Positions 18,203 to 57,325 of a stretch of DNA of 64,000 nucleotides are shown here, one piece after another. The position numbers and the translations under genes were made by a program. Under the pieces are notes generated by a model, which saw only the letters and a list, made by a program, of their open reading frames with translations, did not search any database and was not told the origin of the DNA. The stretch is from Bacteroidota bacterium. Its GTDB lineage: Bacteria > Bacteroidota > Bacteroidia > 2-12-FULL-35-15. The DNA is taken from the NCBI GenBank assembly GCA_023251835.1, contig JAHEXZ010000018.1:1383-65382 (forward strand). The letters run 5' to 3'. How positions within the stretch are numbered: the first letter of the stretch is position 1; the number at the start of each line of letters is the position of its first letter.

Positions 18203-18760
18203 ATGTGTATATTTGATTGTTTACATTCTGACTTACATTATTTTGTAATGCATCATATCTCATATTCTTCTACAATTATAAAAAGCTCTCTTTGTTTTTT
18301 ACTTTTATGTATAATGGGATGGCAGCAATGGGTTACTTTTACAAAATATATAGATAAATTTTCTGCGCCAATCCAATATATAAGGAATACTTATGGCAAC
18401 GATGATATTTCACAATACAGTAGCAGGTTTGAAGAAGTAAAAAGAATATTTCCAGGGGAAACCCGCCTGACTTATGTTTCAGAAAGCATTGTACCAAATG
18501 CCGGTACCAGGGAAATGCACTTTGCTATTGGTCAATATAATTTAGCTCCGAATTTACTTTTCAGAAATAATCATGTCAGTGATAGTATGGTATACAATAG
18601 TGGTGCTAGCCCTGTAACTTTTTCATCAGCAATTTATGACACTGTTATTTATAACCTTTATAGCTCAGTTCATCTTGATGCTAATAATAATTATTACCTG
18701 AATAATGGCTGGCATGTAGTAAAAGATTTTAATAACGGGATAATTATACTGGCTAAATGA
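18203..18760 (+). CDS. small TM-anchored cassette partner (family S4, copy B)
   Basis: C-terminus NNGWHVVKDFNNGIIILAK; TM segment LCFLLLCIMGWQQW as in copy C; true start may be downstream of 18203; 4-nt overlap with next gene. Confidence 0.6.
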   Translation: MCIFDCLHSDLHYFVMHHISYSSTIIKSSLCFLLLCIMGWQQWVTFTKYIDKFSAPIQYIRNTYGNDDISQYSSRFEEVKRIFPGETRLTYVSESIVPNAGTREMHFAIGQYNLAPNLLFRNNHVSDSMVYNSGASPVTFSSAIYDTVIYNLYSSVHLDANNNYYLNNGWHVVKDFNNGIIILAK

Positions 18761-20214
18761 TGTTTTTTTTATCAATAATCACCTCTCTTTTACTTGGGTT
18801 TACTTTTTGCCATTTTTTTTTTAAGAAAATAAAAAGTATTAACCTGCGTTTCTTCATCAATCTTTCTATTCCTATAGGAATAGGTATTTCATCAATTGTT
18901 TTTATTTTTTTTAATCTGATTGGATTTTCTTCCTCAATAATATTTTTGATTGAAATTGTATCAATAATTTTTCTATACTTAAAATTCAGAAATTATCGTA
19001 TAAAAACCTCTCAAGAAAAATTACTATATCAATACGAGTGGTTTAATCTCAACAAACTTCTCTTAAATCCAGTTTTGCTCATTGCAACCTTAATGTATTT
19101 ATATTCATGGATAATGGATAGTGGAATTTTCTTTTTTGATAGCATTCAAAATCCTCATGGTTTATGGGATGCCTGGTCATGTTGGAATTTAATTTCACGA
19201 TTTATAAGCCGTGCGCCACATGATTGGCCGACTTTACTTCATCAAATGAATGCTATAGATTTTCACCCTGATTATCCCCTGTTACAGCGAGGATTTATTG
19301 CCAGGTGCTGGCTGCTTATTGGGGATGAAAGTGTATGGATACCCATTCTCTCCGCTTTTATTTTTACTTTTTGCACAATTGGTCTTTTATCAAGCTCCGT
19401 CAGCGTATTTACCAATAATAAAACCGAAGGGTTTATTGCTGGTTTAGTGCTTCTTTGCACACCTTTTTTTATGGTTATGGGAGATTCACAGTATGCAGAC
19501 AATACGGTGGGCTATTTTTTTCTTGCGACCATTGTATTATTAACCTTAGCCAGAAGAGGGCATTCTGTAAAACCAAATTTGTTAATTGCTGCCGGAATTT
19601 CAGCAGGATTTGCAGCCTGGAGTAAAAATGAAGGACTGCTATTTATTGCATGTTTATTTGTTTCCCAATTAACACTTTTGTTCTTTCATAAAAATCATCG
19701 TGAATTATTCACCGAATTCAAGTATTTATTTATAGGTATGCTTCCTGCCTTAATATTGGTAGCTTATTTAAAAATTTTTATTGCACCGCCTAACCAGATA
19801 ATGTCTGATCAAGGTTTTAAGACTTTTTCCAAATTAACTGATTCCAGCCGATATGCCATGGTATGGCATTGGTTTGTATATCAATTTAGTTCGTTTGGCA
19901 AGTGGGCATTTAATCCCTGGTGGTTATTCCTCCTGGGTATTCTATTTAAGGGGGGGATAAATATTAAAAACAATAATTATTCTTTTGTTTCCAACTTTAC
20001 CTGTTTTTTATTAATGTTGGTTGGATTCTTTTTTATCGAGGTAATAACGCCTCTTGGTCTGCGTTATTATCTTGCAACATCCTTGCACCGGTTGTTTTTC
20101 CAACTGTTTCCTACATTTATCTTCATGTATTTCCTTGCCATTAATGGTACTTCTTCAGACAGCAGAAAAAATAATATTGCAAGCTTAATTGGCAACCTAT
20201 TTAAGAAAAGATAA
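18757..20214 (+). CDS. multi-pass membrane protein family M3 (copy B)
   Basis: 485 aa; ~65-70% identical by eye to copies A and C across the DSIQNPHGLWDAW...MGDSQYADNTVGYFFLATIVLLTLAR...WSKNEGLLFIACL blocks. Confidence 0.7.
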   Translation: MMFFLSIITSLLLGFTFCHFFFKKIKSINLRFFINLSIPIGIGISSIVFIFFNLIGFSSSIIFLIEIVSIIFLYLKFRNYRIKTSQEKLLYQYEWFNLNKLLLNPVLLIATLMYLYSWIMDSGIFFFDSIQNPHGLWDAWSCWNLISRFISRAPHDWPTLLHQMNAIDFHPDYPLLQRGFIARCWLLIGDESVWIPILSAFIFTFCTIGLLSSSVSVFTNNKTEGFIAGLVLLCTPFFMVMGDSQYADNTVGYFFLATIVLLTLARRGHSVKPNLLIAAGISAGFAAWSKNEGLLFIACLFVSQLTLLFFHKNHRELFTEFKYLFIGMLPALILVAYLKIFIAPPNQIMSDQGFKTFSKLTDSSRYAMVWHWFVYQFSSFGKWAFNPWWLFLLGILFKGGINIKNNNYSFVSNFTCFLLMLVGFFFIEVITPLGLRYYLATSLHRLFFQLFPTFIFMYFLAINGTSSDSRKNNIASLIGNLFKKR

Positions 20215-20225
20215 TTAACCCCACA

Positions 20226-21707
20226 TTAGTCCGTTCTTTTAAAAATTTTTGAAAGTTTAAAATTTTTGAGAGTCCGCCCATTCTGTTTTCGTGTTCTCCC
20301 ATTAGGGATACTTATTACTGTAGAATTATTTTTGAGAGCAACAAAGTATATAAAAATAAAAGAAGGGAATAGCTGTGCGAAAAGCCTGTGTAAGGATGTT
20401 GAAAGATAAAACACTAAATCTAATGGTGTAATAATTTCAACTATAAAAAAACCGACCAGCATTAGTATCAACCATGTGACGTTAGCTATAAAAGAATAGC
20501 TGTACTTTTTTATACTTATTCCTCCTTTAAACAAGATGCCTAATAAAAATAACCACCAGGGGTTAAAAGCCCATTGCCCGAAGATTACAAATTGCTCCTT
20601 ATACCACGACCAGATTATTTCATACCTGGAAAAATCTTTTATTTTTATTAATGTTTGCGGGCCCTGGCCTACCACAATCTGATTAGGAGGAGATATGGCA
20701 ATTTTTTGGTAGATAATCAAAGCTAAAATTGGTAACATACCAATTATTAAATATTTAACTTCTGTAAATAATTCTTTAGGATTTTTAAAAAATAACAGAG
20801 TTAGCTGTGAAGTCAACAAACATACAATAAATAGCAGTCCTTCATTTTTACTCCAGGCTGCGAGTCCCGCGGTGAGTCCTGACGCAATTAATAAACCAGG
20901 CTTTGTAGCAGAATCCTTGCGGGCAAGGGTTAATAGCACGATGCTCGCAAGAAAAAAATAGCCCACTGTATTGTCGGCATATTGAGAGTCGCCAAGGAGC
21001 ATAAAAAAAGGTGTACAAAGTAATATCAGGCCAGCAATCAGTCCTTGTATTTTATTTGTAAAGTAACTAACTGCTGCTGACAGAAGACCTATTGCACAAA
21101 ACGTAAATATAAATGAAAAAGCTATAGGTATCCATACTGTTTCATTTTTCAGGAGTATCCAGCATCTGGCAATGTAGCCTTTTTGTAGCAGAGGGTAATC
21201 CGTATGGAAATCTTCGGAAACCAATTGATGAAAGGAATCTGGCCAATTTACAGGGTCTCGGCCTATCATTTTTGCACCCAGGTTCCAATCCGCCCATGCA
21301 TCCCATAAGCCATGCGGTTCCTTTACGCTGTCAAAATAATAAACACCAATATCTAATAGCAATGAATAAAAATAAACGATTACCAGGAGAAGCAAGAGCG
21401 GATTTTTAGCAAGAGTATTTATAGAAAAAATTTTATTTTCTAGTGTGTTCTTTATGATGCTTTTAAATGGGTTACCGTATTTATAAAACAGAAAAAGTAT
21501 AAATACTATTTCAATAAGGATTACAAATAGTGTTGAAACGCCCAGCAAATTGAAAACAATAAAAATAATTGATGAAACTCCTATGCCGATGGGGATTGAG
21601 GAGTTAACCAGAAAACGAGGAGCATAATTGGCAAATTCTTTAAAAAGAATTTTGCATAACAAAATGCCCAGCAAAAAAGAAGTTAATATGGAAATCAAAA
21701 ATATCAT
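20226..21707 (-). CDS. multi-pass membrane protein family M3 (copy C)
   Basis: 493 aa; same conserved blocks; convergent with copy B (stops 11 nt apart). Confidence 0.7.
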   Translation of the reverse strand: MIFLISILTSFLLGILLCKILFKEFANYAPRFLVNSSIPIGIGVSSIIFIVFNLLGVSTLFVILIEIVFILFLFYKYGNPFKSIIKNTLENKIFSINTLAKNPLLLLLVIVYFYSLLLDIGVYYFDSVKEPHGLWDAWADWNLGAKMIGRDPVNWPDSFHQLVSEDFHTDYPLLQKGYIARCWILLKNETVWIPIAFSFIFTFCAIGLLSAAVSYFTNKIQGLIAGLILLCTPFFMLLGDSQYADNTVGYFFLASIVLLTLARKDSATKPGLLIASGLTAGLAAWSKNEGLLFIVCLLTSQLTLLFFKNPKELFTEVKYLIIGMLPILALIIYQKIAISPPNQIVVGQGPQTLIKIKDFSRYEIIWSWYKEQFVIFGQWAFNPWWLFLLGILFKGGISIKKYSYSFIANVTWLILMLVGFFIVEIITPLDLVFYLSTSLHRLFAQLFPSFIFIYFVALKNNSTVISIPNGRTRKQNGRTLKNFKLSKIFKRTD

Positions 21708-23537: not shown

Positions 23538-25874
23538 TTAATTCGGGTATTTTCTTTGAAAATCATTTGCGTTAAACCAATATCCATAATCTTTATCAAA
23601 TTTTGAGCGCCACAATGGAAATTCTGTATAAGGGAAATTGTCTGTTATTTCTTTGGCGTTTTCAACATTTTTCCGTAGTTGTTCTGAATCCATAATTTTT
23701 AAATCTAACAAATTAGCTGACGATTTAAAAAGCACCCCCCATTCGTTTAAATCATTCATAACCCTTGGAGTTTGGTCGGCTGCAGCAAAACGGTTCATAT
23801 CAATAGTAATATCATTAGGGCCGCCTATCATAAAGAATCCCGGATAGCTTGGCCCTGCATAAACAGTTGTATTAGGGAATACAACATAATATGATTTCAT
23901 AATCATTTTCACATCTGTCATCGATTCAGGTGGAATCCACATGCACATTATTCCATTTGTATTTAAGTGTTGTTTACATAATTTAAAAAAATCTGAAGTA
24001 TATAAATTTACAGTTCCCGCACTCCATAATGGTGGAGCGGGATCTATTACAATAATATCATATTTCTTTTTCTGCATTAACAAAAAATTCCTGCCATCAT
24101 CCGTATATGTATGAACACGCTTATTAGTGAGCACTTGTTCAGCATCATTGTGAAAATATTTGAAAGTTTCATACTCTTCTCCCACCAATTCAACAACATC
24201 ACAATTTATTTCTTCATGTGATATTGCAGACCTTAACGCAGTTCCCATTCCAAAGCAAATAATCAACATCTCATGCGGATCTTTGTGCATCAAAATCGGA
24301 AGATGAGACATTATTTTTGTTTCCGGAACCAAGGCGGTCATTCCTATTCCATTTATTAGAATCTGTTTATCCAAAGGATTAGTTTTAGAGCCATAAGCCG
24401 TTGCTGTTGCAACAACACCTTCTTTATGATAATAAATTTCATAATCAGGGTTTGTTGTAATTACTCTTTTAATAACAGTATAGAAAGGATCTGGTGCAGT
24501 GAAACTAAAAAAAGCTGTTAATAGAGTCAGCGACATCGCTGCAACTATTGCTGCATTTTTTACAGTTCGGCCATAACCAGTAAGTAAAACAATTAAGCCC
24601 ACACTGGAATTAATAATAGCAAGCAGAATAATTGTTCCCTGAGTTCCTAAAAACTGAATTAAAACATATCCGGAAATCAGCGATCCCAAAATACATCCCA
24701 AAGTATTTACTGAATAAAGTCTGCCAATTCCTCCTCCTATTGTTGAAGTTTTCTCGACATAAATATTTGTAACAATTGGAAATATAAATCCTAATGCAAA
24801 AGTTATGGGAAATACTACTAAAGCTGGTACTATTACTTTAGAGAAACCATAGGACACTTCATTATGCTGGGGTGTATACTGGCAGAAGATATAAATTCCA
24901 ATAATACTATATAAACCAATAAATGTTAACGCTACCCCCAGTATACCCATAGGATTTACAAGTCTTTCAAAATATTTTCCTGATAGAATGCTACCGAGCG
25001 CAGACCCCAACAGATAAATTCCGAGTACCATACTGAAGGCATATATAGATGTTCCCAATTGAAGCTGAAATAACCTGGTCCACACTATTTCAATTGCAAA
25101 TGAAGTGAAGCCTATCATAAAATATGCAAACAAAATAATCTTTCTCTCCTTAGGTATATATGTCGAAATTTTTTGCACTTTGATAGAGTTATTATCTTCC
25201 GTTTTTAATAATGATGAAATACTCAACTTCAAGTCGCTTCGTTCACCGATTACAAAAATAGCAATAGCGCCAACTATTAAATTGATACTAATACCAAGAA
25301 TAATTGTGTTCAGTTCACCAATAGATCCAATTGTAATAAAACCGCTTGCCAACACTCCCACTACAGCTCCAAGTGTATTTAATCCGTATAAGTTGCCCAT
25401 TCCTTCTGCAAAACTTGAATTGCGTTTTTTTGCCTCAGCACTTAATAAGGGTAACGTGCCTCCCATTAGGAAGGTTGGAACAACAAGTAAGATAAATACT
25501 GTAATAGATTGTAAAAATGTGTATAAAAGGGTACTATTCCCAGACAACCCATGAAAGAATTGATATACCGGTATCAGGCCATTAAACAGAAAGAATACAA
25601 CCAATGCCGTAATAGCAATTCCTATTTCCAAGAAAGCATACAACCGTATTAAATTTTTAATTTTATCGATACGCTTTCCTAAAAAGTAGCTGCCTAATGT
25701 CAGCCCTAACATAAATGCAGATAAAACTATAGAGGTTGCATAAACGGTGCTGCCAAGAATCCTTGAAAGCATCCTGAGCCATACGGTTTCATATATTAAA
25801 CCACTTATTCCTGAAAGAAAAAAAATAAAATATATAACACTATTAATACTCTGACCTTTTTTATTATTATTCAT
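23538..25874 (-). CDS. fused MFS-type membrane domain / spermidine-synthase-like (aminopropyltransferase fold) protein
   Basis: 778 aa; N-terminal 12+ TM (FFLSGISGLIYETVWLRML) and C-terminal class-I MTase-like SpeE-type domain (DIIVIDPAPPLWSAGTVNLYTSDFF); a widespread fusion architecture. Confidence 0.65.
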   Translation of the reverse strand: MNNNKKGQSINSVIYFIFFLSGISGLIYETVWLRMLSRILGSTVYATSIVLSAFMLGLTLGSYFLGKRIDKIKNLIRLYAFLEIGIAITALVVFFLFNGLIPVYQFFHGLSGNSTLLYTFLQSITVFILLVVPTFLMGGTLPLLSAEAKKRNSSFAEGMGNLYGLNTLGAVVGVLASGFITIGSIGELNTIILGISINLIVGAIAIFVIGERSDLKLSISSLLKTEDNNSIKVQKISTYIPKERKIILFAYFMIGFTSFAIEIVWTRLFQLQLGTSIYAFSMVLGIYLLGSALGSILSGKYFERLVNPMGILGVALTFIGLYSIIGIYIFCQYTPQHNEVSYGFSKVIVPALVVFPITFALGFIFPIVTNIYVEKTSTIGGGIGRLYSVNTLGCILGSLISGYVLIQFLGTQGTIILLAIINSSVGLIVLLTGYGRTVKNAAIVAAMSLTLLTAFFSFTAPDPFYTVIKRVITTNPDYEIYYHKEGVVATATAYGSKTNPLDKQILINGIGMTALVPETKIMSHLPILMHKDPHEMLIICFGMGTALRSAISHEEINCDVVELVGEEYETFKYFHNDAEQVLTNKRVHTYTDDGRNFLLMQKKKYDIIVIDPAPPLWSAGTVNLYTSDFFKLCKQHLNTNGIMCMWIPPESMTDVKMIMKSYYVVFPNTTVYAGPSYPGFFMIGGPNDITIDMNRFAAADQTPRVMNDLNEWGVLFKSSANLLDLKIMDSEQLRKNVENAKEITDNFPYTEFPLWRSKFDKDYGYWFNANDFQRKYPN

Positions 25875-32163: not shown

Positions 32164-33678
32164 TTATTTCAATTTAAAGACTTCCATAATCTTTTCACCA
32201 TTAACATCAATTTTATGTACAGGTGTGCCGATATTATAATCTTTAGGGTGCCATCTGAAATTGGTTATAAAGTAATTAGCAGATTTAATGTCAAAAGTAT
32301 ATTCTAACCGACCTCTTTCTTTAACAGGCATTATACTGAAATTTAACATGGGGGTTAAATCCATATCATTATGATCTGAAGTAATAAATATTTTCGGGGA
32401 CGAATCGTTCGTCAAAATGTATTCTAATCCTTGTTTGTAGGATAATCCCCAATAATCAAGATCGTATTTCTCCCGGATATTGCTTCCCGCCAACAGATTG
32501 AAATATACATTCTGATGCGGGTGGTTCCTAACCATAAAAAATACAGTGAAAATAATGGAAAGGAAAGTTAAAGTGAGGGTAGAATTAATTATAATAACCT
32601 TTTTAATTGTTTGAAGCAATTGAATAAAACCATACACAGCAATAAGTACGAAAAAAGGATACACAAAATAAACATGTCTCCATGAATCATATACTGTGGA
32701 ATGTAGTACAATAACTGCTATAATTGGAGAGGCAAATACGAATAAAAATAGCTGGACAGGGATAGTGCTTCTAAAATTTTTCAATGTGTTTTTCACTATG
32801 TAGGCTATTCCCATAACAAAAATAAATATATAATATAGGGGAGTGGTTATACAAATCCATACGGGCAGATAATGCCATGGAACATTTTGTATCGGAACAA
32901 AATTGCCCATATATAGTGTAGTGCCATTACCGGGGTATTTGCTCATCTGCTTAAGTGCTTCCATAAAATGATACCAAGGGGCTAACCAAAATACAGGCCA
33001 GAAAACAATAACAAACACCACCAGATAAATCAAGAACATAATAAGAGGAATTGTTCTTTTTTTTTTTTGAAAAAAATAAAAATAAATGGTTGCGATTGGT
33101 ATCAATATACCCATAACTCTTATATCTATTGTAAATCCACAGAATATTGAGTGAATAAGAGCGGATAAAACAGTTTGCCTCTCAACAAATAAAAACATGG
33201 TGTAGGTAGAAATAATGCAGAAACAAAGCATCATCAAATCCTTCGAATTATAAAAACCTTCAGCAAATATTCTGGGAGAAACAACCAGCATAACCACACA
33301 GAGTAAAGCTGCAAAATGATATTTAAAAATTTTCAACGCGAGAAAATAAAAAAACAGGGAAGCGATAAAGAATGTTAAAAAAGTAAGTAAATGACGTAAT
33401 AAATAAACGCTCCTTTCATCTGTTACATTGAACATCTTTTCTGCCCCATACAATAAAAGTTCAAACGCTGGTCCATGGTATTTCCCGTCATTTGCAAGCA
33501 AAGCCCGAGAGTTATGGTTCTTTATAAAATTATAGTTAGCCTCTCCAATAACATATCTCTGCACTTCTTCATCTGTCGATATTCCATAATCCGAATAAAT
33601 AAAACAGCCCGTCAGAAAAAAAGTTATAAAAAACACATAAGCAATTTTTTTAAATATGCTGTTGTTTGTATAAATCAT
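32164..33678 (-). CDS. GT-C (ArnT/PMT-like, GT39/83-type) membrane glycosyltransferase family GTC-1 (copy 1)
   Basis: 504 aa; first-loop motif SDYGISTDEEVQRY; 11-12 TM then C-terminal soluble domain; paralog of 38560..40065 (LLRHLLTFLTFFIA / MLRHGICFLTFFIA, YNSKDLMMLCFCIIS / YNSKDLSMLCFCIIS). Confidence 0.7.
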   Translation of the reverse strand: MIYTNNSIFKKIAYVFFITFFLTGCFIYSDYGISTDEEVQRYVIGEANYNFIKNHNSRALLANDGKYHGPAFELLLYGAEKMFNVTDERSVYLLRHLLTFLTFFIASLFFYFLALKIFKYHFAALLCVVMLVVSPRIFAEGFYNSKDLMMLCFCIISTYTMFLFVERQTVLSALIHSIFCGFTIDIRVMGILIPIATIYFYFFQKKKRTIPLIMFLIYLVVFVIVFWPVFWLAPWYHFMEALKQMSKYPGNGTTLYMGNFVPIQNVPWHYLPVWICITTPLYYIFIFVMGIAYIVKNTLKNFRSTIPVQLFLFVFASPIIAVIVLHSTVYDSWRHVYFVYPFFVLIAVYGFIQLLQTIKKVIIINSTLTLTFLSIIFTVFFMVRNHPHQNVYFNLLAGSNIREKYDLDYWGLSYKQGLEYILTNDSSPKIFITSDHNDMDLTPMLNFSIMPVKERGRLEYTFDIKSANYFITNFRWHPKDYNIGTPVHKIDVNGEKIMEVFKLK

Positions 33679-38559: not shown

Positions 38560-40065
38560 TTATCGTAGTTTAAATGCTTCCATGATTTTTTCTCCCCTTA
38601 CTTGTATCTGAAATACCGAATTTGGAATATCGTAATCCTGGGGATGGTTCCTGAAATTTGTAATAAAATAGTTGCCCGAATTAATGTCTTTATCTTTTAC
38701 CAGACGCATCCTGTCTTCTGCCGGTATACAATAAAAATTCAGATAACCAGGCAGATTTGCAGCCGTTATGTGTATCTGGTCAGATTTATCATGCGCTAAT
38801 ATATATTCCAGTGCCTGTTTATAAGATAGTCCCCAATATTCCATTTCAAATCTTTGCCGGAGATTATTTCCGGCAAGAACGTTAAAATAGACATTCTGAA
38901 ATGGATGTATGCCAATCATTACTATTATGGTATATGCCATTGATAATACTGTTATTACAACAATAAGTTTTTTAATCATCATGTTTTTTATAATCTGAAA
39001 AACCTGACTAAAGCCATATACAGCAATAATTAGAAAAAAAGGATAAATAAAAAACACATGCCGCCATCCATCATAAAGAGAAGAATTTAAAACTATTATG
39101 GCAACAACGGGAGTAAAAAGCATAAATAAAACAGAATGGAGCATAAAGGTGCTTTTAAAACTTGCAAAAGAATTTTTTATAACAAAAAACAAACCTGTTA
39201 TAAATAGCACAGAGTATACCACAGGCGTTGTTATGCCAATCCATGCCGGTATATAATGCCAGGGCAAATCTGCTGCAGGGACACTTTGTCCAAAATATAA
39301 ATTTGTAGAGCCTTTCACCGGATAGTTGCTCATTTGTTTAAAGGCTTCAATAAAATTTTGTACCGGGTCGAGCCAAAGTACTGGCCAGAAAGCCATGATA
39401 AAAAACAGCGAGTAAGCAATAAACACCAACAACGGAATTATTTTTCTCTCTTTTTGTAAAAAGAAAAAATATACAGTTGCGATCGGCAATAAAATAGCCA
39501 TTATTCTTATATCAACTGCAAAACCACAAAGCAAAGCATGGATAAAAGCACTGAAGATGGTTTGTTTTTCAATAAATAAATACATAGTATATGCTGAAAT
39601 AATACAAAAGCACAGCATAGATAAGTCTTTTGAATTATAAAAGCTGTCAGCAAATATTCGCGGTGATAAAACAAGCATCAGGCAGCCTAATAAGGAAAGA
39701 GCATGCCTCTTAAAAATTTTTAAACATAAAAAATAAAAACACAGAACGGCTATAAAGAAGGTTAAAAAGCATATTCCATGACGCAGCATAAAAATATGCC
39801 GGGCATCTGTTAAATCAAAAAGTTTTTCAGCAGCAAATAAAACAATTTCATAAGAGGGGCCATAATATCTGTGAAAATTTGAAAGTAACTCGGCTGAGTT
39901 TCCTGTTCTTATATAATTATAATTTAAGGCTCCTATTTGTGTCCATTGCACCCCTTCATCCCAATAGATTCCATAATCTGTAAAAATAAAACAAGCAACA
40001 GTAAACAAACAAATGAAAAAAATGAGAGCAGCGCGCTTAAAAAAAAGTTCTTCTTTGTTAAACAT
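38560..40065 (-). CDS. GT-C (ArnT/PMT-like) membrane glycosyltransferase family GTC-1 (copy 2)
   Basis: 501 aa; TDYGIYWDEGVQW first-loop motif; paralog of 32164..33678 including C-terminal domain (EKIMEAFKLR / EKIMEVFKLK). Confidence 0.7.
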   Translation of the reverse strand: MFNKEELFFKRAALIFFICLFTVACFIFTDYGIYWDEGVQWTQIGALNYNYIRTGNSAELLSNFHRYYGPSYEIVLFAAEKLFDLTDARHIFMLRHGICFLTFFIAVLCFYFLCLKIFKRHALSLLGCLMLVLSPRIFADSFYNSKDLSMLCFCIISAYTMYLFIEKQTIFSAFIHALLCGFAVDIRIMAILLPIATVYFFFLQKERKIIPLLVFIAYSLFFIMAFWPVLWLDPVQNFIEAFKQMSNYPVKGSTNLYFGQSVPAADLPWHYIPAWIGITTPVVYSVLFITGLFFVIKNSFASFKSTFMLHSVLFMLFTPVVAIIVLNSSLYDGWRHVFFIYPFFLIIAVYGFSQVFQIIKNMMIKKLIVVITVLSMAYTIIVMIGIHPFQNVYFNVLAGNNLRQRFEMEYWGLSYKQALEYILAHDKSDQIHITAANLPGYLNFYCIPAEDRMRLVKDKDINSGNYFITNFRNHPQDYDIPNSVFQIQVRGEKIMEAFKLR

Positions 40066-46254: not shown

Positions 46255-47451
46255 ATGAAAACCCACTCTATCTTTTTCATGCAAAGATTAATTGCTTGTA
46301 TTATTACAATAAGTTTCATCACAGCTTGCTCAAACTCAGCTAAACTTATGCGCAGCGGAAATTACGATGCCGCAATCCAAAAATCTGTTCGGAAATTAAC
46401 GCGTAAAAAACAAAACGATAAAGAGATAATTACCTTAGAACAGGCCTACCAGAAAGCGAATGACCGGGATAAAGAAAGAATACTTTTCTTAAAGAAAGAA
46501 GGAAAGCCGGAAAACTGGGACCAGATATTCAGCACCTATGCCTGGATAAGCCAGCGTCAGCAGAATATAAAACCATTGCTACCATTGCATATTAGCAGCC
46601 AGGGTCGTGATGCACATTTTGAATTTATAAATTATGATGAAGAAATTATACAAGCGAAAAAAAATGCTACAGAATACTTTTACGCTCATGCCCTGTCTCT
46701 GCTTGACAGAAATAACCAGTCTGATGCAAGACAAGCATACAATGAGCTGTTAAAAGTGAAAAGTTTTACGAATAACTACAAAGACTTAGATAAGGAACTT
46801 AACCGTGCCAAAGACATTGGAACCAGCTATGTTCTTTTTAAAATGAAAAACACAACCGGAGTTCCCTTACCGCCAACATTTGAAGATGAATTAACAAAAA
46901 TAAGTTTAACGGAACTAAATGGTGAATGGATAAAGTATTACACCCATGAAGTAAAAGGGATGAACTATGATTACACTATCCTTGTTAACATGAAAAATAT
47001 TAATGTGTCGCCTGAAGGGGTCAAGGAAACAGCTTTTACCGAATCAAAAACAATCCCCGATGGCTTTGATTATGTTTTGGATTCCAAGGGTAATGTGAAA
47101 AAAGATTCCCTTGGAAATGATATTAAAATACCAAAAACAAAAACCATTACCTGCAATATAATTGAGACCTACCAAACCAAAAAAGCCATTATTGCAGGCA
47201 GCCTGGATTATATTAATAACACTACAGGACAGCTTATAAAAACTGACCCCATTGCGAGTGAGAATTTTTTTGAAAACCGTTCTTATGCTGCTATCGGAGA
47301 CCTCAATGCCTTAAAACCGGAAACCAAGGCCAAACTCGGAAATCGACCTGTTCCTTTTCCTCCCAATTTTGATATGCTTTTACAGGCAGGTGTTGTATTA
47401 AAGGATATGGTAAAAAATATAATTAACAGCAATAAGGGGCTTATTTATTAG
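46255..47451 (+). CDS. hypothetical lipoprotein
   Basis: 398 aa; lipobox ISFITAC-S after signal peptide; no recognisable domain. Confidence 0.6.
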   Translation: MKTHSIFFMQRLIACIITISFITACSNSAKLMRSGNYDAAIQKSVRKLTRKKQNDKEIITLEQAYQKANDRDKERILFLKKEGKPENWDQIFSTYAWISQRQQNIKPLLPLHISSQGRDAHFEFINYDEEIIQAKKNATEYFYAHALSLLDRNNQSDARQAYNELLKVKSFTNNYKDLDKELNRAKDIGTSYVLFKMKNTTGVPLPPTFEDELTKISLTELNGEWIKYYTHEVKGMNYDYTILVNMKNINVSPEGVKETAFTESKTIPDGFDYVLDSKGNVKKDSLGNDIKIPKTKTITCNIIETYQTKKAIIAGSLDYINNTTGQLIKTDPIASENFFENRSYAAIGDLNALKPETKAKLGNRPVPFPPNFDMLLQAGVVLKDMVKNIINSNKGLIY

Positions 47452-47482
47452 AGCAGTAACACATTATCTCTAATTTTAAAAA

Positions 47483-49414
47483 ATGCTACAACCAATAGAA
47501 CGCCTGCAACTGCTTCAAAAATTACTGAAGATTGAGCGTGACGAGGATTTTAATCAATACAAAGAATATTTTTCACGAAACAATATCAATTACCGCAAAC
47601 AAAATGGTGTTACCTGGTATCCTGTAATTATTACCAATACAGAGATTGGCCTGGGCGAATACCTTACCCTTGATATAGAACGAACAACCAATCACAATGA
47701 GCCACACCAGTTCACAGGCGGTAAGAATGCAGCTCTCTTTTCCAACACACATGAAGACGCACAACCTGTTAATGGAATTATTAAAGTAATTAATCCCAAT
47801 AAAATAAGGCTGTCACTAAACATAGATGAATTACCCGACTGGTGCGATGATGGCAAACTGGGAATCAATTTATTGTTTGATGAAAACAGCTACCGCGAAA
47901 TGAATATTGCTCTGGAAAAGGTAATAAATGCTTCGAATAACCGTTTAGCAACGCTTCGTGATATAATGTATGGTATAATTCCGCCAACGTTTAACCGGAT
48001 TGATAATCCTGTATTTATTGACAGATTGAATAAATCGCAAAACGAAGCAGTGCAAAAAATAATTGCAGCCCAAGCCATTGCCATTATCCATGGCCCACCT
48101 GGTACTGGAAAAACAACCACATTAGTACAGGCCATACGCCAAACTTTAAAAACTGAAAAACAGATATTAGTTTGCAGTTCCAGTAACACTGCTGTTGACC
48201 TGTTAACAGAAAAGTTGCATCGCGAAGGGATTAATGTTTTGCGTTTAGGGAATCCGGCACGTATTTCGGAAGAAGTATTGATGAATACTTTGGATGCTAA
48301 AATGGCTGCACATGAATCATATAAAGAATTAAAAAAATACCGTAAAACGGCCGAAGAATACTTCCGCATGGCCGGTAAATACAAACGTACATTTGGCCGT
48401 GAAGAACGCGAACAACGGCAGCTATTGTATGCTGAAGGACGTAAAATACTTAATGACGCACGCGCATTGGAAGATTACATTTTCGATGATCAGTTTGACA
48501 AAGCACAGGTAATTGCCTGCACTCCGGTAGTATCGGCCGGCAAAATGATGCGTAACAAACATTTTAGCACTGTATTTATAGATGAAGCGGCACAGGCATT
48601 AGAGCCAATGTGCTGGATACCCGTTACAAGAAGCGACCGTGTGATATTTGCCGGAGATCATTTTCAGCTACCACCTACTGTTAAATCCAGACAGGCAGAA
48701 ACAGAGGGGTTAAGCATTACACTGTTTGAGCAATGTATGCGGCTTCAAAACATTTCAATAATGCTGAATATACAGTACAGAATGAATGAATTGATTATGA
48801 ACTTTTCCAATAAAAAGTTTTACAAAAATGAACTGATTGCTGATATTTCTGTAAAAGATCATGTTTTAAGCTATAATGCCGATGAATACATTTTGAATGC
48901 CCCTATTGATTTTATTGACACTGCTGGCTGCGGATACAATGAAATAACAAATCCGGAAAGTCTTAGTATTGCCAATCCTGAAGAAGCGCAACTACTAATC
49001 AAACATTTAAAACTACTGCTGGAACAATATGTTCAGGGCAATAAAACAGGACATGAAATCACAATAGGCATTATTTCTCCATATAAAGAACAGGTACAAT
49101 ACATTACCACAAAAATTGATGAAGATGAAGAACTAAAAAGATTCCGCTCATGTATCGCTATAAAAACAGTTGACGGATTTCAGGGGCAGGAAAGAGATGT
49201 AATATATATCAGCCTTGTAAGAAGTAATGATTTAAGAGAAATTGGTTTTTTAAATGATATACGCAGAATGAATGTGGCCCTTACACGTGCAAGAAAAAAG
49301 CTGGTTGTAATTGGCGACAGTGCAACACTTGCGAATCACCCTTTTTATAAGGATTTTCTTGATTATATTGAAAGCATTAATGCCTATAAATCTGCCTGGG
49401 AGTTTATGGGTTAA
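47483..49414 (+). CDS. SF1 helicase, Upf1/DNA2-like (AAA_11/AAA_12)
   Basis: 643 aa; Walker A GPPGTGKTTT, Walker B FIDEAAQ, motif VDGFQGQERDVIYISLVRSN. Confidence 0.75.
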   Translation: MLQPIERLQLLQKLLKIERDEDFNQYKEYFSRNNINYRKQNGVTWYPVIITNTEIGLGEYLTLDIERTTNHNEPHQFTGGKNAALFSNTHEDAQPVNGIIKVINPNKIRLSLNIDELPDWCDDGKLGINLLFDENSYREMNIALEKVINASNNRLATLRDIMYGIIPPTFNRIDNPVFIDRLNKSQNEAVQKIIAAQAIAIIHGPPGTGKTTTLVQAIRQTLKTEKQILVCSSSNTAVDLLTEKLHREGINVLRLGNPARISEEVLMNTLDAKMAAHESYKELKKYRKTAEEYFRMAGKYKRTFGREEREQRQLLYAEGRKILNDARALEDYIFDDQFDKAQVIACTPVVSAGKMMRNKHFSTVFIDEAAQALEPMCWIPVTRSDRVIFAGDHFQLPPTVKSRQAETEGLSITLFEQCMRLQNISIMLNIQYRMNELIMNFSNKKFYKNELIADISVKDHVLSYNADEYILNAPIDFIDTAGCGYNEITNPESLSIANPEEAQLLIKHLKLLLEQYVQGNKTGHEITIGIISPYKEQVQYITTKIDEDEELKRFRSCIAIKTVDGFQGQERDVIYISLVRSNDLREIGFLNDIRRMNVALTRARKKLVVIGDSATLANHPFYKDFLDYIESINAYKSAWEFMG

Positions 49415-49682
49415 AAAATTTAAACGCAATTGGTATTATTAACAGATGGTCTAACTCAATCAAACTCATCAAAAAATTCATAACCACTCAGGAATAACCA
49501 TCAGGAAAAATCTGTGAATCTCTGGCCAACAATTTTTAAATAGATATAAACACACCCCAACAGTAAAACGTTTTTTTTATATTTTAGCCCACCTTATAGT
49601 AAACGCTATTTTTCTTAAAAAGATTTATACCCAAACCCTTTTGCAGGTCGTGATTTTGTTGTCCTATAAAATTATTTAGTTA

Positions 49683-51917
49683 ATGGCTAAGAAAAAATTT
49701 CCTCACATACGCCAGCTCGATTTTATGGATTGCGGTCCTACAACATTAAGGATGATTGCAAAATACTATGGCAAAAACATACCCATAGAATTTTTGAGGG
49801 AAAGCTGTTTCATTGGTAAAGAGGGTTCATCACTTGCAGGAATAGGGTCGGCAGCAGAACGGATCGGATTAAGGAGTACCGCTGTAGAAGCACATTATAA
49901 AGCGCTCTGTGAAGAGGCTCCCTTACCCGTTATTGCATTTTGGAGACAAAATCACTTTGTCGTTGTCTATCAGATAATCAAAGGTAAAAAAGGGAAAAAA
50001 GATACTATAGTTGTCGGAGACCCTGCTCATGATGAATTAATAAAATATGACGAGGACGAATTCAAAAAATTCTGGATTTCAGGTAAAAGTGATGGAGAAG
50101 ATGTTGGAATACTTATGTTGCTGGAACCTACACCTGCATTTTATGAGTTCGATGAATACAGCAGCGAAGTTAATCCAAAAGGAAAATTAAATCGTGTAAG
50201 CTTACGATATCTCTTCAAATATTTAATCCCTTACAAACGTTATATTATTCAGCTTGTCCTGGGCTTAATAGCAGGTAGTGCTATTTCTCTTATACTTCCA
50301 TTTCTTACACAATCACTGGTAGATTTTGGAGTTAATAACCAGGATATTGGCTTTGTATATGCTATTCTTTTTGCACAACTGAGTCTTTTTGTTGGAACAG
50401 CATTTATTGAAGTTATCCGAAGGTGGATTTTACTTTTGCTTTCTATACGAATCAATATCACACTGGTTTCCGATTACCTTGCTAAACTCATGCGCCTGCC
50501 GCTTGGATATTTTGATTCCAAAAATACAGGAGACATCATTCAGCGTATCCGTGACCATGACCGGATTGAAGAATTCCTGACTTCATCGTCATTTGACGTG
50601 TTATTTTCCATGTTTAATATTATAATTTTCGGACTGGTTTTAGCCATTTATGATATACGTATCATGCTGGTATTTCTGTTTGGCACTTTTGTATATGTAC
50701 TATGGATATTATTTTTCCTTAAAAAACGCAGACAAGTTGATTTTAAGCTGTTCAATCAGACCTCTAATAATAAAACAACAGAAATTGAGCTTGTGCAGGG
50801 GATGCAGGAGATTAAACTCAATAATTGTGAGCAGGAAAAACGCTGGCAATGGGAAAGTGTTCAGGCAGAAATGTTCAAGGTAAAACAGCAAAGCCTCGCA
50901 CTTGAAACGTATCAAACTACCGGAGCTTCGCTGATCAATCAGTTGAAAAATATTGTTATTACTTTTCTTGCTGCCAAAAGTGTTATAGATGGAGATATTA
51001 CACTGGGTATGATGCTATCTATCTCTTTCATCACCGGGCAGTTAAATGCTCCTATCCTCAATCTGATTGAAATTATAAAAAAAGCCCAGAATGCATCATT
51101 GAGCCTGGAACGTATTGGTGAAGTACATAATGCATCTGATGAAAATGAAGGTTTGAATGAATCATTCGTAATTTCTGAAAACGATAATATCGAAATAAAA
51201 AACCTGAGTTTCAGATATGGTAACCCGCATAAACCATGGGTGCTTGAAAACCTTAGTCTTATTATTCCCCGTGGAAAAACAACAGCCATAGTGGGCCCCA
51301 GTGGCAGTGGAAAAACCACATTGGTTAAATTGTTACTAAAATTTTACAAACCTGAAAACGGCAGTATACAAATCGGCAACACTCCCCTGGACACTATCAA
51401 CGGGATGGTGTGGCGCAACCGCTGTGGAGCAGTAATGCAGGATGGCTATATTTTTGCAGATACCATTGCACGCAATATAGCTGTAGCCGGCCACATTGAT
51501 AAAAAACGTATGGTAAATGCAGCCCAAATGGCATGTATACGTGATTTTATTGAATACCTGCCCATGAACTATAATACAACGATAGGGATGAAGGGCATAG
51601 GCATGAGCGGTGGTCAAAGACAACGTATCCTTATAGCCAGAGCTATTTATAAAAATCCTGATTTTATATTTTTTGATGAAGCTACCAGTGCCCTGGATGC
51701 TGAAAATGAAATGACTATTACAAGGAACCTTTCTGAATTTAATAAAGACAGAACTACCGTGGTTATAGCACACCGGCTAAGTACTGTTAAAAATGCAGAT
51801 CAGATAATTGTGCTCGATAGAGGTAAAATTATTGAAAAAGGCACCCATACTGAGCTGACTGCAAAAAGAGGAATGTATTATCAGCTTGTTAAAAACCAAC
51901 TTGAACTGGGAGAATAA
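49683..51917 (+). CDS. peptidase C39-domain ABC transporter (bacteriocin/peptide-processing exporter, PCAT)
   Basis: 744 aa; N-terminal C39 domain with catalytic Cys in QLDFMDCGPTTLRMIAKYYG, 6-TM ABC domain, NBD with GPSGSGKTT / LSGGQRQR / IFFDEATSALD. Confidence 0.85.
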   Translation: MAKKKFPHIRQLDFMDCGPTTLRMIAKYYGKNIPIEFLRESCFIGKEGSSLAGIGSAAERIGLRSTAVEAHYKALCEEAPLPVIAFWRQNHFVVVYQIIKGKKGKKDTIVVGDPAHDELIKYDEDEFKKFWISGKSDGEDVGILMLLEPTPAFYEFDEYSSEVNPKGKLNRVSLRYLFKYLIPYKRYIIQLVLGLIAGSAISLILPFLTQSLVDFGVNNQDIGFVYAILFAQLSLFVGTAFIEVIRRWILLLLSIRINITLVSDYLAKLMRLPLGYFDSKNTGDIIQRIRDHDRIEEFLTSSSFDVLFSMFNIIIFGLVLAIYDIRIMLVFLFGTFVYVLWILFFLKKRRQVDFKLFNQTSNNKTTEIELVQGMQEIKLNNCEQEKRWQWESVQAEMFKVKQQSLALETYQTTGASLINQLKNIVITFLAAKSVIDGDITLGMMLSISFITGQLNAPILNLIEIIKKAQNASLSLERIGEVHNASDENEGLNESFVISENDNIEIKNLSFRYGNPHKPWVLENLSLIIPRGKTTAIVGPSGSGKTTLVKLLLKFYKPENGSIQIGNTPLDTINGMVWRNRCGAVMQDGYIFADTIARNIAVAGHIDKKRMVNAAQMACIRDFIEYLPMNYNTTIGMKGIGMSGGQRQRILIARAIYKNPDFIFFDEATSALDAENEMTITRNLSEFNKDRTTVVIAHRLSTVKNADQIIVLDRGKIIEKGTHTELTAKRGMYYQLVKNQLELGE

Positions 51918-51926
51918 GAATAAGTA

Positions 51927-53234
51927 ATGAAATTAGAACCAGAAAATATAGATTTAAGAAGTGACCGGGTAAACGAACTTCTTGGACAGGTGCCACATTG
52001 GATTATTCGCTTTGGGAACGTCATCTTACTTTTTGTTGTTTTGTTATTACTCTCAATCGCTTATTTTATTAAATATCCTGATGTTGTTGTGGCTCGTATT
52101 ACAGTTACAAACAGCTCTCTTCCTCATGAAATTAAAATTAACCCTCAAAGTTACAGCAGCGAATTATCTTACTTAATGGTAAACGATAAACAATTGGTAA
52201 AAAAAGGAGAGGTACTGGCTGTAGCCAAAAATTTAGCGGTATATGAAGATATATTATGTGCACATGAAGAGTTAAAAAATACCCAAAAAGCATTTGCCGA
52301 AGGTCGATTTGATACTCTAAGCCAGTTGTTTTCAAATGGCTTGCAATTGGGAGAATTTCAGCCAGCTTATTCACTTTTGCTTAATGCTATTGAAGATTAC
52401 CGAATCTATAACGACTATAAGTTTCACAAATTTAGCATGGAAGAAATTACCAAACAGATTGACACCTATAAAAAGTTAAAATCTGCACTTCTTAAAGAAC
52501 TAACAATTGCCAACGAACAATTTGCATTAAGCCGGAACAATTATTTAAGAGATTCAACACTTTTTGTACAACAAGTTATCCCTGCTTCTGAGTTTGAAAT
52601 ACTTAAAAAGAAATACCTCGAAGAAAAACTCAAAATTGAAAATATAAAAATTCAAGTTATTGGCTACGACCTCAATATCCAACAAAAAGAAGAAGCCATG
52701 CTGCTTATTTCACAAGATTCCATTAAAGCATTGACGAATCTTTATAGTGGTCTTAATAATGCCATTATGGAATTTGACAGCAAATTACGAAGCTGGGAAG
52801 AAACCTATTTACTCTACTCCCCCATCGATGGTCGTATATCCTTCAACCAACCTCTTAAAGCAGGTAAATATTTGCAAGCTGATAAAACATTAATGATGGT
52901 TTTACCTGATGATACTGCACTTTTTGCATATACTTATTTACCATCAGCAGGAAGCGGCAAAGTGGCTGTTGGACAGGAAACAAAGATTCGTTTTGATGGA
53001 TTTCCGTTTCAGGAGTATGGTGTTGTTAAAGGCAAGGTGCATTCCATTTCAAAGGCAGCAACAGAAGGCCTTTATTATGTGCAAATTAAAATTCCGGCTG
53101 CACTTGAAACAAATTTTCATAAAAAACTGGAGTTTTCATCAAATATGCAGGGAGATGTGCATATTATTACAGAAGACCTGCGGTATATCGAGCGGATATT
53201 TTATCAGTTCAAGAGTGCTTTTACAAAGGATTAG
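51927..53234 (+). CDS. HlyD-family membrane fusion/secretion protein
   Basis: 435 aa; N-terminal TM, long coiled-coil, C-terminal beta domain; immediately downstream of the PCAT. Confidence 0.75.
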   Translation: MKLEPENIDLRSDRVNELLGQVPHWIIRFGNVILLFVVLLLLSIAYFIKYPDVVVARITVTNSSLPHEIKINPQSYSSELSYLMVNDKQLVKKGEVLAVAKNLAVYEDILCAHEELKNTQKAFAEGRFDTLSQLFSNGLQLGEFQPAYSLLLNAIEDYRIYNDYKFHKFSMEEITKQIDTYKKLKSALLKELTIANEQFALSRNNYLRDSTLFVQQVIPASEFEILKKKYLEEKLKIENIKIQVIGYDLNIQQKEEAMLLISQDSIKALTNLYSGLNNAIMEFDSKLRSWEETYLLYSPIDGRISFNQPLKAGKYLQADKTLMMVLPDDTALFAYTYLPSAGSGKVAVGQETKIRFDGFPFQEYGVVKGKVHSISKAATEGLYYVQIKIPAALETNFHKKLEFSSNMQGDVHIITEDLRYIERIFYQFKSAFTKD

Positions 53235-53254
53235 TGGTAAAATAGAAATAAGAA

Positions 53255-53298
53255 AAGGCTGGCAAAAACCAATATTGCCAACCTTTTTCTTGTTTTAT
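53255..53298. terminator. probable bidirectional intrinsic terminator between HlyD and the convergent peptide gene
   Basis: AAGGCTGGCAA-(9 nt)-TTGCCAACCTT (one mismatch) followed by TTTCTTGTTTT on the plus strand and TTTTCTTATTTCTATTTT on the minus strand. Confidence 0.5.
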
Positions 53299-53360
53299 AA
53301 TATCCCGATCCTTATGATGGAACAAAGGATCTGAGCTTGCCCAGGGATTCATACCTGTGA

Positions 53361-53504
53361 TTACATCCAACAGCCATATGGATATTCATTGTCATAATGT
53401 GTTAACCAGTATGCAAAACCGCCACCAGTTATTGTTTTTGAGTTGTCTGTAGTTAATGTTTTCATGGCCTTATTAGTTTTAAGTTTTATTTGTTCTCTGT
53501 TCAT
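53361..53504 (-). CDS. double-glycine-leader peptide (bacteriocin-like / PCAT substrate precursor)
   Basis: Minus-strand peptide M-NREQIKLKTNKAMKTLTTDNSKTIT-GG | GFAYWLTHYDNEYPYGCWM. The leader ends I-T-G-G with I at -4 and L at -12. The core is Trp/Tyr-rich with one Cys. The gene is convergent with, and directly adjacent to, the C39 exporter and HlyD genes. An alternative start is at 53465 (MKTL), and the track ORF extends to 53549. Confidence 0.55.
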   Translation of the reverse strand: MNREQIKLKTNKAMKTLTTDNSKTITGGGFAYWLTHYDNEYPYGCWM

Positions 53505-53730
53505 TTCCGGAACAGACTCGGATTTATGGTTACAAAGATATATCTGCAAAAAAGTGAAAAAGCGGTAAACTAAAATCCGGTAAGAGTCAACTTAAATTTG
53601 GTAGCTTATGAGATAAGTTTGGTATTAATTATGACAACAGTTCATTTTATAGGCTTCATCCGCAATATTATAAACGAGGCTTTTAATTGTTTTTATTTCT
53701 ATTTTTACAAATAGATACTCTTCTGATAAT

Positions 53731-54564
53731 ATGCAAAATGGCAAAAAACCAATAGGAATATTTGATTCCGGTTATGGAGGACTTACGGTTTTAAGAGAAA
53801 TTGTAAAAGAATTGCCTCAATATGATTATATATATCTGGGAGATAATGCCCGTGCTCCTTATGGTACACGCTCGTTTGAAACAGTGTATGAGTATGCCCT
53901 GGAATGTGTAGAACAGTTGTTTTCAATGGGGTGTGAACTTATAATATTGGCATGCAATACCGCTTCAGCAAAAGCATTGCGAACTATACAACAAAAAGAC
54001 CTGCCTCGAATTGCCCCGGAGAAAAGAGTTTTGGGCGTAATTCGACCCACCACAGAAATAATAGGAAAATATACCAAAACTAAACATGTAGGGGTATTGG
54101 GGACTACCGGAACAATTAGCTCTGATTCTTATCCGATTGAAATTAAAAAATTATATCCCGAATTTGTAATACAACAGGAAGCCTGCCCTATGTGGGTTCC
54201 ATTGGTAGAAAACAATGAATTTGAAAGTGCAGGTGCTGATTTTTTTATTCAGAAAAATTTAAACTCACTTTTGTCAAAAGATAACCAGATTGATACTATT
54301 ATTCTTGGATGTACACATTACCCTTTATTATTAAATAAAATAAAAAAACATGTACCTCCGTATATTACACTTATATCACAAGGAGAAATAGTGGCTAAAA
54401 GTCTCGCAGATTATCTGAAACGGCATACTGAAATAGAACAAAAATGCAGCAAGGGTAGTAATATCGGGTTTTATACAACGGACTCTCCTGATAATTTTAA
54501 TAAAGCAGCAAGCATTTTCTTTGGAGGAGCCGTAAAATCGAAACATCTGGATATGAATCATTAG
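53731..54564 (+). CDS. murI: glutamate racemase
   Basis: 277 aa; IGIFDSGYGGLTV, ACNTAS, GCTHYP catalytic-cysteine motifs. Confidence 0.85.
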   Translation: MQNGKKPIGIFDSGYGGLTVLREIVKELPQYDYIYLGDNARAPYGTRSFETVYEYALECVEQLFSMGCELIILACNTASAKALRTIQQKDLPRIAPEKRVLGVIRPTTEIIGKYTKTKHVGVLGTTGTISSDSYPIEIKKLYPEFVIQQEACPMWVPLVENNEFESAGADFFIQKNLNSLLSKDNQIDTIILGCTHYPLLLNKIKKHVPPYITLISQGEIVAKSLADYLKRHTEIEQKCSKGSNIGFYTTDSPDNFNKAASIFFGGAVKSKHLDMNH

Positions 54565-56359: not shown

Positions 56360-57325
56360 ATGCAACAAAAAAATTATTACATATTGCTCGGAGTAAACAG
56401 TACTGTTAGTTATGAAGAACTGAAAATAGCATATCGCAATCTGGCTAAGAAATACCACCCCGATAAAAACCCCGGAAATAAAATTGCAGAAGAGTATTTT
56501 AAAGACATACAACAGGCTTACACCATTTTATCTGATCCGGAAAAACGCAGAGTGTACGATTTAAAATTATCAAGTACCGGAACAAATACACAAAAAACTT
56601 ATACTCAATACGGTGGAAATGCATACCAATATGCTCAACAACAAGCTCAGCAAAAAAATCAATTCCATAAAAGAAAACAGCAAACAAAAAAAAACGATAA
56701 AGTTGAAAGCTATCAGATTCTTATCAGTGTTGCAGTTGCTTTTATTTTACTTTATTTTATAATTTCTTATTCTACCAACAATAAATCTGCAGATTCTATT
56801 CATCAGACAATAGAGAGCTCTTATTCCGAAGCAGCTAAAAAAGCAGAAATTAAGCAGGCCTCAAAATCTCCAATGATCAGTCCTTATGCATCACCTTATA
56901 CTGTTTTTTTTGGTGAAGAAGTTATTGATGAAAACAACAAAAACAGCATTTTAATCCATAACAGCAATGAGTCTGAAGTAGTAGTATGCCTCGTTGAAAA
57001 CAGAAAACAAGGTAAAACAATTCGTAACCAGTATATGAATATGGGTACGTCATTTAAAATGAACAATATTCCTGACGGAGAATATTTCTTAAAAATATAT
57101 TATGGTACCAATTGGGATACAGTAAAAACGTTTGTAAATAATACTGTAAAAGGTGGCTTTATAAATGAAATTGGCTTTGTTCAACTAAATACAGGAAAAA
57201 ATATTTTAAAAATGCAACAAAATCAAACTACTACAAGTATATCATACTCCTCTTACGAAATAGGTATAAACCCCTACCAGAAAAAAGACGTAACAATAAT
57301 CACTGCAGAACAATTTTTTAAATAA
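56360..57325 (+). CDS. DnaJ (J-domain) protein with TM segment and C-terminal domain
   Basis: J-domain [35 protein letters not shown]...; Q-rich linker; [20 protein letters not shown]. Confidence 0.7.

Follow-up and report, generated by a model that had tools for sequence, protein, structure and literature searches.

The 64,000-nucleotide stretch analysed here (the window), from contig JAHEXZ010000018.1 of a Bacteroidota bacterium, carries a peptidase-containing transporter (PCAT) of the ATP-binding cassette (ABC) type, an HlyD/AprE-type periplasmic adaptor and, convergent with both on the opposite strand, a very small gene whose predicted product would have a leader ending in double glycine (GG) and a short core rich in tryptophan and tyrosine. 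We read this set of genes as a dedicated cleave-and-export module for a small secreted peptide processed by the PCAT, a toxin-like role included, and would give this reading a probability of about 0.6. The kind of system is an ordinary one; the unfamiliar part is its cargo, which is unannotated and varies between strains. The transporter, the adaptor and the minus-strand open reading frame (ORF) had previously been picked out by a model from the letters of the window (the original prediction), and translation, Pfam and TIGR01843 place all three where that prediction had put them.

The small gene lies in the 496-bp spacer between the HlyD gene and murI, in a window of low G+C content (34.6%). 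The original prediction had opened its frame at ATG 53504, which gives 47 aa, while 53549 is merely a TTG farther upstream in the same frame. The comparison with a second strain replaces that start. The protein cluster of the HlyD adaptor has two further members, both in Logan assemblies (L088 and L089): the first is the same strain as the window, with 4 single-nucleotide differences in 10.6 kb and zero in the spacer, whereas the second, once joined to L090 through a 24-nt overlap, yields the HlyD-spacer-murI stretch of another strain, whose HlyD is 88.6% identical to that of the window in nucleotides and 91% in protein (synonymous divergence dS 0.53, dN/dS 0.08), and whose murI stands at dS 0.36. 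This strain carries a positional homologue of the peptide gene with a 15-residue leader like that of the window and a core of 25 aa. An in-frame TAA occurs four codons 5′ of its ATG and there is no ATG farther upstream, the equivalent of the 13-codon extension 53466-53504 being without an ATG, containing a stop and thus not conserved; therefore, the conserved start in the window is ATG 53465, and the precursor has 34 aa, with a leader of 15.

The frame is open in both strains despite indels in the spacer, and the leader pattern MKTLTT[DE]....[IV].GG is common to them. Within the first seven leader codons there are two synonymous changes plus one D>E change, the GGT GGC codons are identical, and position -4 is Ile in the window and Val in L089, with Leu at -12 in both. 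A small ORF conserved beside an orthologous transporter pair, whose absence the original prediction had taken to count against itself, is thus found, at the same place. The leader end I-x-G-G, with Ile at -4 and Leu at -12, reads as that prediction had described it, and so does the short core with its single Cys: GFAYWLTHYDNEYPYGCWM has 19 aa, is acidic and 37% aromatic, and its side chains give a net charge of -2. The core of L089 has this charge too, and in each of the two Trp and Tyr are over-represented (P 0.001 and 0.02).

Precursors of this class have an N-terminal leader of about 15-30 aa that ends in GG, GA or GS, as both alleles do. GG leaders carry hydrophobic residues at three or four of the recognition positions -4, -7, -12 and -15 (PMC7018657). 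In both alleles three of the four are hydrophobic (Ile or Val at -4, Leu at -12 and Met at -15) and -7 is Ser or Thr. In shuffles of the 496-bp spacer, an ORF starting with M and with [ILVMF]xxGG in leader position appears in 0.6-1.7% of cases, and it is present in 6 of the 257 real 496-bp tiles of the window. A regular-expression scan for M-start ORFs with hydrophobic-x-x-GG in leader position gave three in the 64 kb; besides the small ORF there is one that overlaps the 485-aa ORF 18757-20214 and a third within the span of the minus-strand 778-aa ORF 23538-25874, so that the small ORF is the sole intergenic candidate. A hidden Markov model (HMM) of the leader, built ad hoc from GG peptides beside related transporters, ranks it first of 540 small ORFs of the window, albeit weakly (10-11 bits, E 0.01-0.02). 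The small ORF is more than chance.

The transporter that accompanies it has the Pfam domains PF03412 Peptidase_C39 (residues 5-131, E 2.6e-28), PF00664 ABC_membrane (191-457) and PF00005 ABC_tran (521-669), and its alignment with the solved transporter PCAT1 (4ry2) spans the full length (E 9e-105). In an alignment of its first 158 residues with PCAT1, LahT150 and ComA, Gln11, Cys17, His91 and Asp113 correspond to the oxyanion Gln and the catalytic triad; Cys17, in FMDCGPTT, aligns to the catalytic Cys of PCAT1, which is Ala in entry 7n87. The translation also shows the ATPase motifs: GPSGSGKTT (Walker A), MSGGQRQR (signature), FIFFDEATSALD (Walker B) and AHRL (H-loop). Since the four catalytic residues and the ATPase motifs are present, the Cys of FMDCGPTT, which the original prediction had held to be intact, is the catalytic one, and the PCAT looks fully functional and catalytically competent; judged by these residues, its C39 domain is of the active type and not one of the inactive C39-like domains that HlyB-type exporters have. 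The HlyD gene begins 9 nt past the PCAT stop, and the precomputed annotation of the adaptor, a membrane fusion protein, is PF26002 Beta-barrel_AprE.

The peptide gene is also framed by signals. Upstream, the box TATCTTTG matches TAnnTTTG, which we take to be the Bacteroidetes -7 promoter consensus, and sits in a 21-nt block, ATATATCTTTGTAACCATAAA, that is identical in L089/L090; the conserved promoter and leader read ATATATCTTTGTAACCATAAA ... ATGAAAACNYTAACTACAGA. The upstream spacer is 84% identical between them, against 62-71% at synonymous sites of the flanking genes, although this conserved spacer also serves the divergent murI promoter. No -33 TTTG was seen at canonical spacing to the -7 box, no significant structure was found in the 5′ untranslated region of the peptide gene, and no Rfam family reached threshold in the spacer. 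Downstream, the stops of the two convergent genes are 126 nt apart, and on the minus strand the segment 53236-53365 folds into GGUUGGCAA...UUGCCAGCC followed by the U-tract UUUUCUUAUUUCUAUUUU, at -37.4 kcal/mol (z -3.4, with 0 of 200 shuffles as stable). As the hairpin has this U-tract on the minus strand and, past HlyD on the plus strand, a T-run, it looks like a bidirectional terminator. A simple terminator scan did not report it, giving instead a smaller hairpin at 53331-53344(-); the equivalent place in L089 has, by eye, a different hairpin with a T-tract.

Taken together, the peptide gene would be transcribed from its own promoter toward the end of HlyD, stopping at the shared hairpin. 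The C39 domain of the adjacent PCAT would bind the 15-aa leader of the 34-aa product and cut after Gly15, and the PCAT, driven by ATP, would pass the 19-aa core to the outside together with the HlyD-type adaptor and an unlinked outer-membrane channel. The secreted core would probably be unmodified, and its variation between strains, while the leader is kept, would fit a peptide that is secreted to act on other cells. Our best guess for its role, made by analogy with the bacteroidetocins, is a narrow-spectrum bacteriocin or microcin-like peptide without a dedicated immunity gene. In the 64 kb there is no immunity candidate, nor any conserved small ORF in either flanking spacer, and no radical S-adenosylmethionine (radical-SAM) enzyme, LanB/C/M, YcaO, P450 or other maturase, which extends to the whole window what had been said of the vicinity of the locus. 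The ORF 53598-53714, the one small ORF between the peptide gene and murI, was considered as an immunity gene and dropped, its sequence being largely deleted in L090.

Table 1. Positions in the window of the export module, its flanking signals and other features, with the homologue of the peptide gene in the second strain.
Feature	Position	Strand	Description
PCAT, 744 aa	49683-51917	+	C39 peptidase domain, six-helix membrane domain, ATPase domain
HlyD/AprE-type periplasmic adaptor, 435 aa	51927-53234	+	HlyD_3 E 4.5e-14; TIGR01843 E 6e-29
G+C-rich hairpin	53250-53291		Putative bidirectional intrinsic terminator between the convergent HlyD and peptide genes
Precursor gene from conserved start, 34 aa	53361-53465	-	Leader MKTLTTDNSKTITGG, core GFAYWLTHYDNEYPYGCWM
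Leader, 15 aa	53421-53465	-	Part of precursor gene
Core, 19 aa	53364-53420	-	Part of precursor gene
Stop	53361-53363	-	Part of precursor gene
Small ORF, long form, 47 aa	53361-53504	-	Leader MNREQIKLKTNKAMKTLTTDNSKTITGG, core GFAYWLTHYDNEYPYGCWM
Optional N-terminal extension, 13 codons	53466-53504	-	MNREQIKLKTNKA; in frame, open in the window strain only
-7 box	53533-53540	-	TATCTTTG; upstream of ATG 53504 (by 28 nt) and of ATG 53465 (by 67 nt)
Homologue of peptide gene in L089, 40 codons	Same place	Same	Leader MKTLTTESTQQVAGG, core YCDWMTQSATQLFYVYYCLTDGNIH
murI	53731-54564
Predicted lipoprotein, 398 aa	46255-47451	+	Signal ends ...ITAC/S; no Pfam match
Upf1/DNA2-like superfamily 1 (SF1) helicase	47483-49414	+	AAA_11 plus AAA_12
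PMT_2 (ArnT-like) paralogues, five	13244-14638, 18757-20214, 20226-21707, 32164-33678, 38560-40065
GT87	9834-11303		In glycosyltransferase cluster

Several observations weigh against this interpretation. The export unit had been called complete, which for a diderm says too much: the ORFs scanned in the window include no TolC-like outer-membrane component. The leader ends in GG as proposed and yet is atypical, because position -7 is polar (Ser or Thr) in both alleles, the usual pair of acidic -8 and hydrophobic -7 is missing from both, and no NCBIfam leader or bacteriocin model matches the 47-, 34- or 40-aa forms at E<=10; the remark of the original prediction that the peptide does not resemble class IIa/IIb bacteriocins stands. 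The small ORF had been passed over by gene callers. An exhaustive phmmer search of 1.84 billion representative proteins gave no genuine homologue of the peptide, and a word-index search gave zero candidates. As regards the core, the alignment between the two strains is not significant (shuffle p 0.2), and its nucleotide divergence (~65% identity, with indels) is no greater than that of the synonymous sites of its neighbours, that is, approximately neutral; the signs of constraint on it are therefore only the weaker ones of an open frame and of composition and charge. Finally, the reachable data hold only two distinct alleles, and an anionic 19-mer is unlike the known toxins of Bacteroidota. 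A shared core motif, [FY]xxW[LM]T[HQ]...YxYxC, was also tried and dropped, being not significant against composition-preserving shuffles (p 0.2), and diversifying selection cannot be claimed and was likewise set aside, because the core has diverged just as fast as neutral sequence (dS 0.36-0.53).

Other searches for relatives gave the same picture. The sole phmmer hit (P0040) was dropped as spurious, since seven weak repeat matches sum to its E of 5e-6; this 582-aa protein consists of about eight near-identical tandem repeats of ~71 aa (TSFDTTDGSVTSVPGGVKYTVTSLDNSNPKEAG...). Searching plasmids with tblastn returned only chance matches, one of them antisense to a B. fragilis plasmid gene, and when ~11,000 small ORFs from 93 loci were scanned with HMMs made from one or both alleles, the two strains alone gave matches. 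A likeness of the 28-aa long-form leader to the pinensin type (KLKLxxLKxxSFVT), seen by eye, was abandoned because NF038180 gave no match; with a pinensin-leader HMM the window ORF comes third, at 3.4 bits. A scan of JGI metagenomes for more alleles gave relatives at 25-27% identity only, and the HlyD relative that is 55% identical (L081) has just 48 bp of sequence downstream.

Much of this could also be explained if the small ORF were a chance frame in the HlyD-murI spacer and the real substrates of the PCAT and the adaptor were encoded elsewhere in the genome. The lack of homologues in very large protein collections, the silence of the gene finders and of the curated leader models, the polar -7 and the neutral divergence of two cores without significant similarity all lean that way, as does the arrangement of most related loci, where the GG peptides lie upstream and co-oriented rather than convergent downstream. 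What makes this explanation improbable is that the frame, the start, the 15-codon leader, the GG codons and MKTLTT have been kept at a dS of ~0.4-0.5 with several indels, when chance would produce such an ORF in ~1% of cases, a figure that takes no account yet of its conservation and of the PCAT nearby; to this are added the unusual composition and charge that both cores share, and the terminator and conserved -7 box that frame the ORF.

If the ORF is real, the same export could deliver something other than a toxin. The product could be a cell-to-cell signal, a GG pheromone like ComC/CSP or BlpC with strain-specific pherotypes, an alternative that we hold to be unlikely, if less so than a chance frame. 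The mature peptides would be short (19 and 25 aa), probably unmodified, non-cationic and without an immunity gene, and a leader that is kept while the core varies, between strains whose HlyD proteins are 91% identical, resembles the pherotype polymorphism known from comC, blpC and agrD. Moreover, PCATs export quorum signals in Gram-positive bacteria (PMC7018657). Nevertheless, pherotype systems keep receptor and peptide linked, and the 64 kb contain no histidine kinase, response regulator or receptor candidate (a scan of 47 larger ORFs of the window gave neither HisKA/HATPase nor response-regulator domains); in addition, the literature searched does not describe GG-type peptide signalling in Bacteroidota, and such a signal would have an outer membrane to cross on the receiving side too. 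A bolder version, with a strain-specific GG pherotype of 19 aa here and 25 aa in the sister strain and with an unlinked receptor or, less radically, with an unmodified short anionic toxin directed at a new target, seems to us slightly more speculative still; if true, the signal would give Bacteroidota their first communication system based on double-glycine peptides, and the anionic toxin would represent a peptide family not yet in any database. The core could also belong to a peptide made by the ribosome and modified after translation (RiPP), its aromatic residues cross-linked or otherwise modified, before cleavage by the PCAT, by enzymes encoded outside the window, such as a radical-SAM cyclophane or thioether synthase. 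Short Trp/Tyr-rich cores resemble the typical substrates of aromatic cross-linking enzymes, which act on cores of this kind in darobactin, triceptides and streptide, and related PCAT/HlyD loci often have precursors of RiPP type (pinensin-type NF038180, or leaders of radical-SAM targets, TIGR04149). This we consider very improbable, since within 64 kb there is no maturase, the leader matches no RiPP leader model and, at 15 aa, is short for a recognition element, and the two alleles offer an enzyme no fixed core motif. Thus, among these possibilities, it is the secreted, PCAT-processed peptide with a toxin-like role that we prefer.

The relatives of the transporter provide a wider context for that preference. 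Bacteroidota have many PCAT/HlyD pairs (one genome scan confirmed 440 relatives of the HlyD, of which the best 80 were kept, all at 29-34% identity), and the pairing of PCATs with GG peptides has been described as common in Bacteroidales (PMC10352776). Of the 63 related loci where both genes could be placed, 42 have a PCAT directly upstream of the HlyD and on its strand, and recognisable GG-leader peptides lie <=6 kb away in at least ~18 of the 80. There is good support for the association between this clade of transporters and GG peptides. These peptides are mostly Cys-rich, and some of them match the leader models of pinensins (NF038180), class I lanthipeptides (NF038153) or TIGR04149; the peptide of the window matches none of the three and resembles no peptide of the related loci, which makes it an orphan. 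As a separate observation, HlyD/PCAT homologues of an Ignavibacteria metagenome-assembled genome (MAG), Fulvivirga imtechensis and two Adhaeribacter species have next to them unannotated small ORFs whose leaders are of the pinensin type (NF038180, E 1e-8 to 5e-13) and whose cores are Cys-rich (L011:3066-3353(-), L014:5512-5766(-), L025:1213-1452(+) and L039:1155-1424(+)), and other Cys-rich GG-leader ORFs occur among many loci (L007, L008, L012, L046, L054, L067, L071, L075 and L076).

MurI is ~80% identical in many uncultured Bacteroidota, the relatives being MAGs named 'Bacteroidota bacterium' or 'Bacteroidia bacterium'. In two of these (L091:1-1818 and L092:2873-8369; MurI 81-82% identical) murI follows a conserved uppS-bamA-ompH-ompH block and the export module is wholly absent, whereas in the window it follows, over 46255-53730, the lipoprotein, the SF1 helicase, the PCAT, the HlyD and the peptide gene; with such different neighbours upstream of murI, the module stands at a synteny break directly upstream of this gene. 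As the murI relatives lack the module and the HlyD has a single relative above 35% identity outside the species, the segment from the lipoprotein to the peptide gene is accessory, or rearranged, in this lineage. The segment has no compositional anomaly, and the window contains no tRNA gene. The lipoprotein and helicase genes, directly upstream of the PCAT, are kept with it in L088, but neither occurs at any of the 80 related transporter loci. BamA is the reported target of bacteroidetocins (PMC8546649), and the module occupies the place that bamA-ompH has in the relatives, a curiosity for which there is no evidence of a link to BamA.

The other ORFs scanned in the window are housekeeping genes, genes without a family match and a large glycosyltransferase cluster, and none of them has to do with peptide biosynthesis. 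This cluster, of ~30 kb (9834-40065), is rich in membrane glycosyltransferases and has, besides the GT87 and PMT_2 genes, two DegT aminotransferases, a C-methyltransferase and GT2 enzymes; five PMT_2 paralogues at one locus are unusual. The 778-aa ORF mentioned above joins an MFS_1 domain (residues 15-376) to a spermine/spermidine synthase domain (519-682). Toward the other end, the register between the window and the otherwise nearly identical L088 is lost from 56779 on, a position within the DnaJ-domain gene (56360-57325), and the length of this protein, 320 aa in L088 and 321 aa in the ATG-start ORF of the window, suggests an indel of about one codon near that point.

The locus leaves unchanged the understanding of how PCAT systems work. 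What it adds is one cargo of unusual chemistry, together with a small comparison of strains that differ in the core and share the leader. The cargoes of these transporters are mostly unannotated because their genes are tiny and fast-evolving, and genes of this sort escape the standard gene callers and leader HMMs. In the event that the peptide is active, it would widen the range of what Bacteroidota secrete beyond the Cys-rich, basic bacteroidetocins and the RiPPs.

Among known systems, PCAT1 of Clostridium thermocellum (4ry2) and LahT150 (6mpz) share with the PCAT of the window the order of domains and the catalytic Gln, Cys, His and Asp, although they serve as structural references only, their substrates (CtA and lanthipeptide precursors) being unrelated to our peptide. 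The GG pheromones of streptococci and lactobacilli (ComC/CSP-ComAB, BlpC-BlpAB) are likewise short, keep the leader while the mature part varies between strains, and are unmodified and released by a PCAT, as our peptide probably is; however, they belong to Gram-positive bacteria, usually carry a positive charge and always come with a linked cognate histidine kinase and response regulator, genes that the window lacks. Closer in architecture are the class II microcins of the ColV type, whose GG leader is cut, and the peptide exported, by a PCAT with a membrane fusion protein and TolC (PMC12219008). In these CvaAB-type systems, as would be the case here, TolC is encoded elsewhere, but the microcins are larger, and beside them is encoded a small immunity protein of the inner membrane, of which there is none at our locus, and the leader of the window is shorter than the enterobacterial microcin signals and divergent from them. 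The bacteroidetocins have GG leaders of 15-16 aa, require a PCAT and have no immunity genes (PMC6671954). They resemble our system (PMC6671954, PMC8546649) in coming from Bacteroidota, in the length of the leader, in the position of the gene beside a C39 ABC transporter, in the absence of an immunity gene and probably also in being unmodified. They differ in that the mature peptides have ~42 aa, are basic (+2 to +6) and carry 2-4 Cys in disulfides, as compared with 19 aa, a charge of -2 and one Cys, and there is no sequence similarity between them and our peptide. Their four-gene locus, too, adds a protein with five transmembrane segments and, as a rule, a thiol oxidoreductase, where the window has instead an HlyD adaptor.

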